This document shows, one piece after another, positions 26,519 to 29,319 of a stretch of DNA of 64,000 bases. This stretch comes from Escherichia coli (GTDB lineage Bacteria > Pseudomonadota > Gammaproteobacteria > Enterobacterales > Enterobacteriaceae). The notes below the pieces were generated by a model. That model did no database searches, was not told where the DNA came from, and saw nothing but the letters and a program-made list of their open reading frames with translations. A program made the position numbers and the translations under genes. Every line of letters starts with the position of its first letter. Position 1 is the stretch's first letter. The DNA lies in assembly GCF_045037415.1 (NCBI RefSeq), contig NZ_CP173438.1. One strand, written 5' to 3'.

Positions 26519-26546
26519 GGAACTTTACAAAAACGAGACACTCTAA
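26519..26546 (+). promoter_or_regulatory. Sigma-E-dependent rpoE promoter (P2)
   Basis: GGAACTTT then a 16-nt spacer then TCTAA matches the sigma-E consensus; about 80 nt upstream of the rpoE ATG. Confidence 0.8.
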
Positions 26547-26628
26547 CCCTTTGCTTGCTCAAATTGCAGCTAATGGAGTGGCGTTTCGATAGCGCGTGGA
26601 AATTTGGTTTGGGGAGACTTTACCTCGG

Positions 26629-27204
26629 ATGAGCGAGCAGTTAACGGACCAGGTCCTGGTTGAACGGGTCCAGAAGGGAGATCAGAAAGCCTTTAACTTA
26701 CTGGTAGTGCGCTATCAGCATAAAGTGGCGAGTCTGGTTTCCCGCTATGTGCCGTCGGGTGATGTTCCCGATGTGGTACAAGAAGCTTTTATTAAAGCCT
26801 ATCGTGCGCTGGATTCGTTCCGGGGAGATAGCGCTTTTTATACATGGCTGTATCGGATTGCTGTAAATACAGCGAAAAATTACCTGGTTGCTCAGGGGCG
26901 TCGTCCACCTTCCAGTGATGTGGATGCCATTGAAGCTGAAAACTTCGAAAGTGGCGGCGCGTTGAAAGAAATTTCGAACCCTGAGAACTTAATGTTGTCA
27001 GAAGAACTGAGACAGATAGTTTTCCGAACTATTGAGTCCCTCCCGGAAGATTTACGCATGGCAATAACCTTGCGGGAGCTGGATGGCCTGAGCTATGAAG
27101 AGATAGCCGCTATCATGGATTGTCCGGTGGGTACGGTGCGTTCACGTATCTTCCGAGCGAGGGAAGCTATTGATAACAAAGTTCAACCGCTTATCAGGCG
27201 TTGA
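26629..27204 (+). CDS. rpoE: RNA polymerase sigma-E factor (ECF sigma-24)
   Basis: Track ORF 26596..27204 starts at GTG; the ATG at 26629 gives 191 aa MSEQLTDQVLVERVQKGDQKAF. Confidence 0.95.
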   Translation: MSEQLTDQVLVERVQKGDQKAFNLLVVRYQHKVASLVSRYVPSGDVPDVVQEAFIKAYRALDSFRGDSAFYTWLYRIAVNTAKNYLVAQGRRPPSSDVDAIEAENFESGGALKEISNPENLMLSEELRQIVFRTIESLPEDLRMAITLRELDGLSYEEIAAIMDCPVGTVRSRIFRAREAIDNKVQPLIRR

Positions 27205-27236
27205 CGATAGCGGGATACTGGATAAGGGTATTAGGC

Positions 27237-27887
27237 ATGCAGAAAGAACAACTTTCCGCTTTAATGGATGGCGAAACGCTGGATAGTGAGCTGCTTAACG
27301 AACTGGCTCATAACCCAGAAATGCAGAAAACCTGGGAAAGCTATCACTTAATCCGTGACTCAATGCGGGGTGATACTCCCGAGGTGCTCCATTTCGATAT
27401 CTCTTCACGCGTGATGGCCGCCATTGAAGAAGAGCCAGTACGTCAACCGGCGACATTGATCCCGGAAGCCCAGCCTGCGCCGCATCAATGGCAGAAAATG
27501 CCATTCTGGCAGAAAGTACGTCCGTGGGCGGCACAGCTTACCCAAATGGGCGTAGCAGCATGCGTATCGCTTGCAGTTATCGTTGGCGTCCAGCACTATA
27601 ATGGGCAATCTGAAACGTCCCAGCAGCCCGAAACGCCAGTATTTAATACACTGCCGATGATGGGTAAAGCCAGCCCGGTTAGTCTGGGAGTACCTTCTGA
27701 AGCGACCGCAAATAATGGTCAACAGCAGCAGGTACAGGAGCAGCGTCGTCGCATTAATGCAATGTTGCAGGATTACGAACTGCAACGCCGACTCCACTCT
27801 GAACAGCTTCAGTTTGAGCAGGCACAAACTCAGCAAGCCGCTGTACAGGTGCCAGGAATTCAAACTTTAGGAACGCAATCGCAGTAA
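27237..27887 (+). CDS. rseA: Anti-sigma-E factor RseA
   Basis: Track ORF 27201..27887 starts at TTG; the ATG at 27237 gives 216 aa MQKEQLSALMDGE; single TM segment and Q-rich C-terminus. Confidence 0.93.
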   Translation: MQKEQLSALMDGETLDSELLNELAHNPEMQKTWESYHLIRDSMRGDTPEVLHFDISSRVMAAIEEEPVRQPATLIPEAQPAPHQWQKMPFWQKVRPWAAQLTQMGVAACVSLAVIVGVQHYNGQSETSQQPETPVFNTLPMMGKASPVSLGVPSEATANNGQQQQVQEQRRRINAMLQDYELQRRLHSEQLQFEQAQTQQAAVQVPGIQTLGTQSQ

Positions 27888-28843
27888 TGAAGCAACTTTG
27901 GTTTGCCATGTCATTAGTGACAGGTAGCCTGTTATTCTCTGCTAACGCCTTGGCCACTCCCGCGTCCGGGGCGTTATTACAGCAGATGAACCTGGCCAGT
28001 CAGTCACTGAATTACGAGCTGTCATTTATCAGCATCAATAAACAGGGTGTTGAGTCTCTGCGTTATCGACATGCACGCCTCGATAACCGTCCTCTTGCAC
28101 AATTGTTGCAAATGGATGGCCCGCGCCGGGAAGTGGTACAGCGCGGCAATGAAATCAGCTATTTTGAACCGGGACTTGAACCGTTCACGCTTAATGGCGA
28201 TTACATTGTTGATTCTCTGCCATCGCTCATCTATACCGATTTCAAACGCCTTTCTCCTTACTACGACTTTATCTCTGTCGGGCGCACGCGTATTGCTGAT
28301 CGTCTTTGCGAAGTCATTCGTGTGGTTGCCCGAGATGGTACACGCTACAGCTACATCGTGTGGATGGACACCGAATCGAAATTACCGATGCGGGTTGATC
28401 TCCTTGATCGCGATGGTGAAACGCTGGAACAATTTCGCGTGATTGCTTTTAACGTCAATCAGGATATCGGCAGCAGTATGCAGACGCTGGCGAAGGCAAA
28501 TTTGCCGCCGTTGCTTTCTGTTCCTGTTGGTGAAAAAGCTAAATTCAGCTGGACGCCAACCTGGCTGCCACAGGGTTTTAGCGAAGTTTCCAGTAGTCGA
28601 CGTCCGCTACCGACGATGGACAACATGCCTATCGAATCACGTCTCTATTCCGACGGATTATTCAGCTTCTCGGTAAACGTTAACCGCGCTACGCCATCGA
28701 GCACCGATCAGATGTTGCGCACCGGACGCAGAACCGTCAGTACAAGCGTACGTGATAACGCCGAAATCACCATTGTTGGTGAACTGCCGCCGCAAACGGC
28801 GAAACGCATTGCCGAGAATATTAAGTTCGGGACAGCGCAATGA
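27887..28843 (+). CDS. rseB: Sigma-E regulatory protein RseB (periplasmic)
   Basis: 318-aa ORF with signal peptide; start overlaps the rseA stop. Confidence 0.93.
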   Translation: MKQLWFAMSLVTGSLLFSANALATPASGALLQQMNLASQSLNYELSFISINKQGVESLRYRHARLDNRPLAQLLQMDGPRREVVQRGNEISYFEPGLEPFTLNGDYIVDSLPSLIYTDFKRLSPYYDFISVGRTRIADRLCEVIRVVARDGTRYSYIVWMDTESKLPMRVDLLDRDGETLEQFRVIAFNVNQDIGSSMQTLAKANLPPLLSVPVGEKAKFSWTPTWLPQGFSEVSSSRRPLPTMDNMPIESRLYSDGLFSFSVNVNRATPSSTDQMLRTGRRTVSTSVRDNAEITIVGELPPQTAKRIAENIKFGTAQ

Positions 28844-29319
28844 TCAAAGAGTGGGCTACCGTCGTCTCCTGGGAAAACGGGCAGGCGCTGGTCAGTTGTG
28901 ATGTTAAAGCCTCATGCAGCAGCTGCGCTTCACGCGCCGGTTGCGGTAGCCGTGTGTTGAATAAACTTGGCCCGCAAACCACGCATACCATTGTCGTACC
29001 CTGTGATGAGCCGCTAGTGCCGGGGCAAAAAGTGGAATTGGGGATCGCCGAAGGCAGCCTTCTTAGCTCCGCATTACTGGTTTATATGTCGCCGCTGGTG
29101 GGATTATTCCTCATCGCTTCGCTATTTCAGCTACTCTTTGCTTCTGACGTCGCAGCATTATGTGGTGCGATCCTCGGCGGTATTGGTGGGTTCCTGATTG
29201 CGCGCGGCTATTCGCGTAAGTTTGCTGCCCGGGCAGAATGGCAACCGATCATCTTAAGCGTGGCATTGCCGCCTGGCCTTGTGCGATTTGAAACATCTTC
29301 GGAAGACGCGAGCCAGTGA
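28840..29319 (+). CDS. rseC: Sigma-E regulatory protein RseC
   Basis: 159-aa ORF, cysteine-rich N-terminus plus two TM segments; ATGA overlap with rseB. Confidence 0.9.
   Translation: MIKEWATVVSWENGQALVSCDVKASCSSCASRAGCGSRVLNKLGPQTTHTIVVPCDEPLVPGQKVELGIAEGSLLSSALLVYMSPLVGLFLIASLFQLLFASDVAALCGAILGGIGGFLIARGYSRKFAARAEWQPIILSVALPPGLVRFETSSEDASQ

Follow-up and report, generated by a model that had tools for sequence, protein, structure and literature searches.

The window, which is the whole 64-kb stretch of Escherichia coli DNA that was analysed, carries the genes for RpoE, RseA, RseB and RseC in that order on one strand, preceded by a short ORF that overlaps rpoE. This locus, which is essential in E. 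coli, acts as the master switch by which Gram-negative bacteria respond to outer-membrane stress. Gene coordinates were taken from the list of open reading frames, from NCBIfam matches over the full length, and from a 100%-identical genome annotated in RefSeq.

26477-26632, plus strand: rseD, a 51-codon 'rpoE leader peptide' ORF (RefSeq annotation of 100%-identical genomes, ORF list)
26629-27204, plus strand: rpoE, ECF sigma factor sigma-E, 191 aa (TIGR02939 equivalog, 328.7 bits, cutoff 236)
27237-27887, plus strand: rseA, membrane anti-sigma-E factor, 216 aa (NF008116 equivalog, 425.7 bits)
27887-28843, plus strand: rseB, periplasmic RseA-binding regulator, 318 aa (NF006990 equivalog, 541.5 bits)
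28840-29319, plus strand: rseC, annotated SoxR-reducing system protein, 159 aa (NF008115 equivalog, 275.8 bits)

All four proteins passed the NCBIfam equivalog cutoffs over their full length, and RefSeq agreed with these assignments. RpoE contained the Pfam domains Sigma70_r2 and r4_2 and matched PDB entries 1OR7_A and 6JBQ_F at E ~1e-122, RseA contained RseA_N and RseA_C and matched 1OR7_C and 3M4W_E, RseB contained the N and C domains of MucB_RseB, and RseC contained RseC_MucC. As the earlier note had pointed out, the ORF list over-extends rpoE (to GTG 26596, 202 vs 191 aa) and rseA (to TTG 27201, 228 vs 216 aa). The TTG was rejected as the start of rseA and considered to be an artefact of the ORF caller, since RseA read from ATG 27237 aligns with positions 1-216 of a 216-position profile.

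Several E. coli genomes carry the 3,295-nt locus with 100% identity, and among 5,426 complete genomes 5,424 have it; the segment comprising the promoter and rseD is at least 99% identical in 5,425 genomes. Positions 26477-26640 are 100% identical to K-12 MG1655. Transcription start sites (TSSs) were drawn from reviews of published K-12 work and carried over to this strain through this sequence identity. Four features make up the promoter region directly upstream of rpoE.

26496-26508, plus strand: A-rich stretch ACAAACAAAAACA, at about -45 to -57, the position of a UP-like element (sequence)
26519-26525, plus strand: -35 element GGAACTT (sequence; matches the published consensus GGAACTTTT, PMC1312014)
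26542-26546, plus strand: -10 element TCTAA (sequence, after a 16-nt spacer)
26553-26554, plus strand: sigma-E-dependent TSS, rpoE P6, formerly P2 (published position mapped to the window)

Read from the sequence, GGAACTT-N16-TCTAA occupies 26519-26546, 82 nt before the rpoE ATG (26629). The -35 region is GGAACTTTA at 26519-26527, with a core match of 7/7, and the 16-nt spacer is TACAAAAACGAGACAC. The published sigma-E consensus has TCAAA as its -10 core and spacers of 15-19 nt, of which 16 is strongly preferred (PMC1312014). GGAACTT-N15-17-TCNAA occurred once on both strands of the 64-kb window, compared to 0.05 occurrences expected from shuffled sequences. When a simple 11-point consensus score with an empirical background was used in place of the published position weight matrix (Rhodius 2006), the rpoE promoter was the sole 11/11 site among 128,000 window positions. 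Background sites scoring at least 9/11 appeared at 0.07 per 230 nt, and those scoring 11/11 were absent from 1.16 M positions. The runner-up among sigma-E-like sites of the window was located upstream of bamD, a known member of the core sigma-E regulon, and can be regarded as a positive control for the scan.

In an alignment of 26 Enterobacterales, GAACTT was invariant or nearly so, and the T, C, A and A of the -10 element (TC.AA) were conserved. The spacer varied in sequence, with its length fixed at 16 nt in essentially all orthologous loci. The score at the rpoE promoter was 11/11 in 19 Enterobacterales, and of the 80 gammaproteobacterial species compared, about 70 had nGAACTT-N16-TCnnA ahead of rpoE. 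The A-rich stretch was partly kept in Enterobacteriaceae; sigma-E promoters carry A/T-rich elements at -48/-49 and -57/-58 according to Rhodius et al. (PMC1312014).

The published sigma-E-dependent TSS of rpoE at -75 from the ATG (PMC8103513; also PMC6358824, PMC1312014) corresponds to window position 26554, 7-8 nt past TCTAA and within 1 nt of G26553. This G is a purine with a 6-nt discriminator after TCTAA and 27 nt from GGAACTT to +1, in agreement with the published sigma-E rule that +1 is a purine, 5-6 nt beyond the -10 and 25-28 nt beyond the -35 element (PMC1312014). Sigma-E dependence of the rpoE promoter has been reported in K-12 (PMC1312014; PMC6358824), the operon was described as having two conserved sigma-E promoters (PMC1312014), and genomic SELEX found sigma-E holoenzyme bound at the rpoE/nadB spacer (PMC5493296). 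The promoter of this strain has the same -35, -10, 16-nt spacer and distance to the ATG as K-12 rpoE P6, with no difference detectable. Strong sigma-E-dependent induction of an rpoE-lacZ fusion carrying only P6 has already been reported in K-12. Judged by its sequence, GGAACTT-N16-TCTAA is the published, positively autoregulated, sigma-E-dependent rpoE promoter, with the sigma-E dependence and the TSS taken from the literature. The proposal of the earlier note, that a sigma-E-type promoter upstream of rpoE makes the gene self-activated, is thus upheld by the motif and its conservation, by the comparison with the published TSS, and by the K-12 literature together with the 100% identity to K-12. 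This autoregulated promoter is already known, and everything flagged in the earlier note on 26519-29319 has been in the literature since 1995-2006.

The sigma-E promoter sits within rseD, the TGA of which (26630-26632) overlaps the rpoE ATG in an ATGA stop/start junction. rseD was absent from the earlier note. It is described as the rpoE leader peptide of an rseD-rpoE-rseABC operon, where rseD-rpoE coupling is also cited (PMC8595263). All E. coli genomes in RefSeq have an annotated rseD. Yakhnin et al. 2017 reportedly observed that rpoE translation is cut by more than half when coupling to the rseD ORF is lost. From these data rseD could be regarded as a fifth protein with a regulatory function, and selection on this peptide, not on cis-elements, as the cause of the conservation ahead of rpoE. 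We consider this unlikely, because the intact ORF (ATG at -152) is confined to E. coli and E. albertii; one Citrobacter locus and one 'Enterobacter sp. Ag1' locus have similar ORFs, and most Enterobacterales have no in-frame ATG or have early stops. The two differences between the E. coli and E. albertii rseD sequences are both non-synonymous, the ORF has no Shine-Dalgarno (SD) sequence and no Pfam family, and the ATGA overlap with rpoE is automatic given that RpoE starts with Met-Ser(AGC). The blocks conserved across the order are instead the -35, the -10, the TSS-proximal GCTTGCTC and the SD region. That the rseD ORF is largely limited to Escherichia, while its internal cis-elements are conserved order-wide, is a modestly useful by-product of the comparison.

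26553-26628, plus strand: 5' UTR of the sigma-E transcript, with the conserved GCTTGCTC at its 5' end, 26553-26560 (alignment)

In this leader the rpoE SD sequence GGGGAG lies at 26611-26616 (pairing energy -8.5 kcal/mol), and GGA triplets are found at 26575, 26598, 26613 and 26627. CsrA has been reported to have three sites on the rpoE leader, two of which cover the SD and the start codon (PMC7652899; PMC5694010). GCUUGCUC (26553-26560), the 8 nt with which the transcript begins, is conserved from Escherichia as far as Xenorhabdus, unlike the surrounding rseD ORF, and is predicted to pair with 26631-26638 (GAGCGAGC, comprising the G of the rpoE start codon and codons 2-3). This helix has a duplex energy of -17.2 kcal/mol (z = -4.4 relative to random windows), with similar values in 28 of 31 Enterobacterales. 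Of the alignment cells, 91% pair, compared to 22-46% in slid controls, and 12/12 one-sided substitutions keep the pair. Compensatory double changes were not seen in the helix alignment, where no covariation is obtainable, the 3' strand being coding sequence that does not vary. The fold of the whole leader was not significant (z = -1.08). For transcripts starting at G26553, the predicted helix probability was 0.84-1.0 in most 3' contexts, and it was ~0 for P1-P5 starts; the prediction collapses once the 5' end is moved by 1 nt, and also with some of the 3' ends. A tentative possibility, which we rate as rather unlikely, is that pairing of GCUUGCUC with the rpoE start would specifically let the autoregulatory transcript dampen its own translation and/or would protect its 5' end, and that longer transcripts from upstream promoters might escape by alternative folding or by translation of rseD across the helix. 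If so, rseD would be an ORF restricted to its lineage, with the role of a ribosome track and not of a protein.

The remaining genes are joined in two different ways. The rseA/rseB junction is TAATG, a 1-nt overlap kept in 28/32 Enterobacterales, and the rseB/rseC junction is ATGA, a 4-nt overlap kept in 24/32; both can be read directly in the sequence, as the earlier note had done. The SD sequence of rseB is weak and distant (-4.2 kcal/mol, 13-nt spacing). Overlap geometry and weak SD sequences point to translational coupling, so that rseA to rseB and rseB to rseC are probably coupled. In contrast, the rpoE stop codon (TGA, 27202-27204) and the rseA ATG (27237) are separated by a 32-nt gap (27205-27236). 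This gap measured 26-50 nt in 32/32 Enterobacterales, and overlap occurred in 0 of 77 loci. rseA has its own ribosome-binding site after this conserved spacer of ~30 nt.

The packing of the operon by start/stop overlaps, as the earlier note described it, therefore holds for rseA/rseB and rseB/rseC and fails for rpoE/rseA, where the supposed TTG-adjacent overlap came from the mechanical ORF extension to 27201. A stronger form of the same idea is that translational coupling of all four genes through overlapping stop and start codons fixes the stoichiometry of sigma and anti-sigma factor. The two conserved overlaps and the poor SD sequence of rseB fit such four-gene coupling, but rpoE-rseA is the only one of the described junctions that lacks an overlap, the TTG start that would supply one is an artefact, and RseA has in addition to its own ribosome-binding region an extra source of mRNA. 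A second sigma-E promoter, within rpoE, also gives rise to RseA, and that transcript is separately regulated by RyhB, FnrS and CsrA (PMC8595263; PMC5694010), so that stoichiometry would not be fixed by coupling. We find fixed stoichiometry quite improbable, and prefer probable coupling of rseA to rseB and of rseB to rseC. Our analysis in this respect confirms the call made from sequence and corrects its over-reach, in that sigma and anti-sigma factor are not coupled by overlap.

26975-27009, plus strand: rseAP3, a second sigma-E promoter inside rpoE (published TSS, synonymous-site conservation)

The internal promoter, also absent from the earlier note, reads cGAACcc (26975-81), N16 and TCAGA (26998-27002), with +1 at G27009 and a 228-nt rseA leader. 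In the literature, transcription from rseAP3 starts 228 nt ahead of the rseA ATG (PMC8595263; PMC1312014), and the site found here corresponds to rseAP3 of Rhodius et al. (2006) in locus and exactly in this distance. AGAACTT at 26984 and GAAATTT at 26968 were tried as alternative -35 elements and rejected, since no TCNAA followed 15-17 nt downstream and +1 would not fall at the published 228 nt. The consensus score of rseAP3 was only 7/11, a far weaker match than that of rpoE P6, and the promoter was picked up by synonymous-site conservation and not by motif strength. Its nucleotides are invariant in 32 Enterobacterales, synonymous sites included, and form the strongest trough of synonymous-site variation in rpoE: nowhere in the gene was synonymous codon entropy lower than in codons 113-123 (0.155; mean 1.09, sd 0.30). 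This sequence is not conserved outside Enterobacterales. That synonymous-site conservation alone locates a promoter embedded in rpoE is a modestly useful by-product.

26248-26476, plus strand: upstream rpoE promoter region (published TSSs converted to window coordinates)

Besides P6, five upstream rpoE promoters have been published, with TSSs at -381 (P1), -327 (P2/P3), -218 (P4) and -153 (P5) (PMC8103513), which correspond to window positions 26248, 26302, 26411 and 26476. A simple sigma-70 scan gave no site in the nadB-rpoE spacer, and over the whole region it gave one site, on the minus strand, compared to 3.9 expected. A perfect TATAAT is located at 26462-26467, ahead of the P5 TSS. A sigma-54 consensus scan around the published -327 start (P2) showed no convincing site, the best (7-8/11) being located elsewhere. 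Several of the upstream promoters respond to LPS defects independently of sigma-E (PMC6358824), but the idea that rpoE is driven essentially by these sigma-70, sigma-54 and sigma-S promoters, leaving the sigma-E-type motif as a chance match or a minor promoter, has almost no likelihood in view of the uniqueness of the motif in the window (0.05 expected), its conservation across gammaproteobacterial orders with fixed spacer length, the sigma-E-dependent TSS published at the predicted place (PMC6358824; PMC1312014; PMC8103513) and the holoenzyme binding seen by SELEX (PMC5493296), and the upstream promoters supplement rather than replace the sigma-E promoter.

We have very little doubt that this region represents the envelope-stress operon of E. 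coli, rseD-rpoE-rseA-rseB-rseC, with a sigma-E-autoregulated promoter, for which identity, motif uniqueness, conservation and junctions were computed here, and sigma-E dependence, TSSs, CsrA and rseD coupling come from the literature. In the proposed mechanism, sigma-E RNA polymerase would recognise GGAACTT and TCTAA, 16 nt apart, and start at about 26553/26554; by this recognition free sigma-E would raise transcription of its own gene, which constitutes positive feedback. The inhibitors RseA and RseB, encoded on the same transcript, would provide built-in negative feedback, and the weaker second sigma-E promoter (+1 27009) would add rseABC transcription without rpoE. The five upstream promoters would supply sigma-E-independent input through transcripts that include rseD. 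During translation, rseA, rseB and rseC, joined by their stop/start overlaps, would probably be coupled, with rpoE and rseA set apart by the spacer.

This organization is shared in part with other ECF02-type loci. The order of sigma factor, anti-sigma factor, RseB/MucB and, in some, RseC/MucC is common to E. coli, the rpoE operons of Vibrio, Pasteurellaceae and Aeromonas, and algU-mucABCD of Pseudomonas, although Pseudomonas itself was not included in the 80 loci compared. Similar to E. coli, the loci of Vibrio, Haemophilus, Aeromonas, Shewanella, Pseudoalteromonas and others have GAACTT-N16-TCnnA upstream of the sigma gene. Unlike E. coli, ECF02-type loci outside Enterobacterales have no rseD-like ORF, their leaders are 54-150 nt long, compared to 82 nt in E. 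coli, and those of Pasteurellaceae are without RseC.

Beyond what the earlier note described, the anatomy of the operon was completed by the addition of rseD, rseAP3, the upstream promoters, a possible antisense RNA covering rseC and a terminator-like hairpin.

28804-29635, minus strand: AsrC-homologous region (Rfam RF02746, 501.6 bits, gathering score 111)
29310-29341, plus strand: terminator-like hairpin over the rseC stop codon (terminator scan)

AsrC is an 893-nt cis-antisense RNA of rseC in Salmonella Typhi (PMC4585123), and its RACE ends there (119 nt into lepA, 36 nt before rseC) coincide with the ends of the E. coli match (PMC4585123). The RNA has been demonstrated experimentally only in S. 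Typhi, whereas in E. coli it is known here from the sequence match, and this match to RF02746 could simply reflect conserved coding sequence. The hairpin consists of GAGCCAGTG-ATTT-CACTGGCTT followed by a T-rich tail and is a candidate terminator, with a fold energy of -18.3 kcal/mol (z = -3.08).

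Several complete E. coli chromosomes carry the segment from 26222 to 29516 with 100% identity, and of the 5,426 complete genomes of the species, 5,424 contain it. Gene names and coordinates were those of the RefSeq annotation of identical sequence, converted to window positions; rseD, a leader ORF ahead of rpoE, was also present in the ORF list.

24599-26221, minus strand, nadB (divergent)
26477-26632, plus strand, rseD (51 codons)
26629-27204, plus strand, rpoE
27237-27887, plus strand, rseA
27887-28843, plus strand, rseB
28840-29319, plus strand, rseC
from 29517, plus strand, lepA

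RpoE, RseA, RseB, and RseC passed NCBIfam equivalog cutoffs at full length (328.7, 425.7, 541.5, and 275.8 bits, respectively) and contained the expected Pfam domains, and solved structures of sigma-E/RseA, sigma-E/-35 DNA, and RseB/RseA were matched. As the earlier note had pointed out, rpoE and rseA were over-extended in the ORF list (GTG 26596 and TTG 27201); family profiles and RefSeq favour ATG 26629 and ATG 27237.

The motif proposed to make rpoE self-activated, GGAACTT-N16-TCTAA, was read at 26519-26525 and 26542-26546, exactly where it had been placed. With both strands scanned, the 64 kb contained a single copy of this pattern (0.05 expected), and it was the sole perfect site among ~128,000 window positions on a simple 11-point consensus score of the -35 and -10 elements. 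Since 26477-26640 matches K-12 MG1655 at 100% identity (and 5,425 E. coli genomes at 99% or more), promoter mapping published for K-12 is valid here. Reviews of the primary work count six promoters for rpoE; relative to the ATG, transcription begins at -381, -327 (two promoters), -218, -153, and -75 (PMC8103513, PMC6358824). Sigma-E holoenzyme recognises the proximal one, P6 (formerly P2), which is positively autoregulated (PMC6358824, PMC8103513). In window coordinates, the published start at -75 falls at 26554, and G26553 lies 6 nt past TCTAA and 27 nt past GGAACTT. Both the geometry and the G26553 start agree with what PMC1312014 derives from 28 mapped sigma-E promoters: a -35 of GGAACTTTT, a -10 core of TCAAA, a preferred spacer of 16 nt, a discriminator of 5-6 nt, a -35 to +1 distance of 25-28 nt, and a purine at the start. 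In genomic SELEX, purified sigma-E holoenzyme also gave a peak in the rpoE/nadB spacer (PMC5493296).

As an independent test of the promoter, rpoE loci of 80 species were fetched, and nGAACTT-N16-TCnnA was found ahead of rpoE in ~70 of them, spanning Enterobacterales, Vibrio, Pasteurellaceae, Aeromonas, and Alteromonadales. The score was 11/11 in 19 Enterobacterales loci, while the remainder of the 80-species loci, used as background, contained no 11/11 site across 1.16 million positions and yielded 0.07 sites of at least 9/11 and 0.004 of at least 10/11 per 230 nt. Across 26 aligned Enterobacterales, the letters of the -35 and -10 elements were fully or nearly invariant, and the 16-nt spacer was free in sequence and fixed in length, a footprint typical of promoters. 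Taken together, K-12 identity, the published P6 start, the SELEX peak, and this conservation support the earlier note's reading of a sigma-E-type, self-activated promoter; the element is the textbook, already known autoregulated sigma-E promoter with its rpoE-rseABC operon. Six of the fetched loci, five from Rheinheimera and one from Alishewanella (L066, L071, L072, L074, L077, and L079), had a near-perfect CGAACTT-N16-TCTAA within rpoE at +100, codon ~34; the upstream promoter was weaker in five of them (8/11) and scored 9/11 in L066. This motif may be an internal sigma-E promoter, placed differently from the enterobacterial rseAP3.

Among window sites with a 16-nt spacer, the second-best was GGAACAT-N16-TCTAA (957-930, minus strand). 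It falls within the coding sequence of the divergent rluD, ~190 nt ahead of bamD/yfiO (1-738, minus strand), and is probably the known sigma-E promoter of bamD. Rhodius 2006 (PMC1312014) lists bamD as a core sigma-E regulon member, which makes this site a positive control for the motif scan.

To the earlier account we add rseAP3, rseD, and the upstream promoters. The start of rseAP3, a sigma-E promoter internal to rpoE, is published as 228 nt ahead of the rseA ATG (PMC8595263, PMC1312014), and maps to G27009, with elements cGAACcc (26975-81), N16, and TCAGA (26998-27002). The motif itself is weak (7/11), and nucleotides 26965-27002 were invariant in 32 Enterobacterales, including every synonymous position; sliding-window synonymous codon entropy reached its gene-wide minimum, 0.155, exactly at rseAP3 (mean 1.09, sd 0.30).

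A fifth cistron of the operon, rseD, has the sigma-E promoter within it, and transcripts from that promoter therefore do not carry the rseD start. In the literature rseD is treated as the rpoE leader peptide (PMC8595263). Its distribution is restricted: in a comparison with loci L002-L031 and L040, the intact ORF, with ATG at -152, was confined to E. coli and E. albertii, similar ORFs occurred in one Citrobacter locus and one locus of another genus, and in most Enterobacterales the in-frame ATG was missing or stops were present. The blocks conserved order-wide within the rseD region were the -35, the -10, the TSS-proximal GCTTGCTC, and the Shine-Dalgarno region, and E. coli and E. albertii rseD differed by two changes, both non-synonymous. 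The rseD TGA overlaps the rpoE ATG (ATGA), which is automatic because RpoE starts Met-Ser(AGC). A search for a Shine-Dalgarno sequence for rseD found none. Five sigma-E-independent promoters are published upstream (PMC8103513), and simple consensus scans gave no confirmation of these five. The published P5 start, 26476, has a perfect TATAAT ahead of it (26462-26467) and lies one base ahead of the rseD ATG (26477); transcription from P5 would yield a leaderless mRNA for rseD.

The start/stop overlaps attributed to the operon were present at rseA/rseB (TAATG) and rseB/rseC (ATGA), retained in 28 and 24 of 32 Enterobacterales, respectively, but not at rpoE/rseA, where a 32-nt spacer separates the last base of the rpoE TGA (27204) from the rseA ATG (27237). 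Across the 32 Enterobacterales this spacer always measured 26-50 nt, and overlap was seen in none of 77 loci. Given junction geometry, overlap conservation, and the weak and distant rseB Shine-Dalgarno sequence, translational coupling appears plausible for rseA to rseB and rseB to rseC, and not plausible for rpoE to rseA. The earlier reading thus needs one correction, as sigma and anti-sigma are not coupled by overlap.

The mechanistic steps of the circuit come from the literature, our own data concerning the presence and conservation of its sequence features. Free sigma-E transcribes its own gene from P6, a positive feedback; the same mRNA also encodes RseA and RseB, by which sigma-E is sequestered again, and rseAP3 provides extra sigma-E-dependent RseA, RseB, and RseC. 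Rhodius et al. (PMC1312014) put this arrangement forward as a damping loop. At the RNA level, CsrA has three sites in the rpoE leader, two covering the Shine-Dalgarno sequence and start codon (PMC7652899, PMC5694010), and conserved GGA triplets of the leader were aligned at 26598, 26613, and 26627. RyhB and FnrS target the 228-nt rseAP3 leader (PMC8595263).

At its conserved 5′ end, the sigma-E transcript reads GCUUGCUC (26553-26560), a stretch complementary to GAGCGAGC (26631-26638), the start-codon G plus codons 2-3, with a predicted duplex of -17.2 kcal/mol (z = -4.4 against random windows). Pairing was kept in 91% of alignment cells versus 22-46% in slid controls, and all one-sided changes keep the pair, compensatory changes being impossible here. 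For the transcript from G26553, predicted helix probability was 0.84-1.0 in most contexts, compared with ~0 for longer transcripts; the prediction is fragile, as a 1-nt shift of the 5′ end disrupts it, and the entire leader fold was ordinary (z = -1.08). We offer pairing of this 5′ end with the rpoE start-codon region only as a hypothesis.

At the other end of the operon, a stable hairpin (29310-29331, z = -3.08) overlaps the stop codon of rseC; together with the interrupted T-tract behind it (29310-29341 overall), it is likely a weak intrinsic terminator of the operon before lepA. A strong Rfam match (501.6 bits) covered 28804-29635 on the minus strand; it is to AsrC, an RNA cis-antisense to rseC that is on record only for Salmonella Typhi (PMC4585123). 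The ends of this match are homologous to the mapped Salmonella ends, and the match may stem from coding-sequence conservation alone. Other Rfam matches in the window were as follows.

2592-2730, RyfD
5728-10745, complete rRNA operon with spacer tRNA and StyR-44
32418-32632, rncO autoregulatory leader of rnc
36044-36120, OhsC antitoxin sRNA
45319-45466, GlmY

GlmY has overlapping sigma-54 and sigma-70 promoters, like rpoE P2/P3 (PMC6358824).
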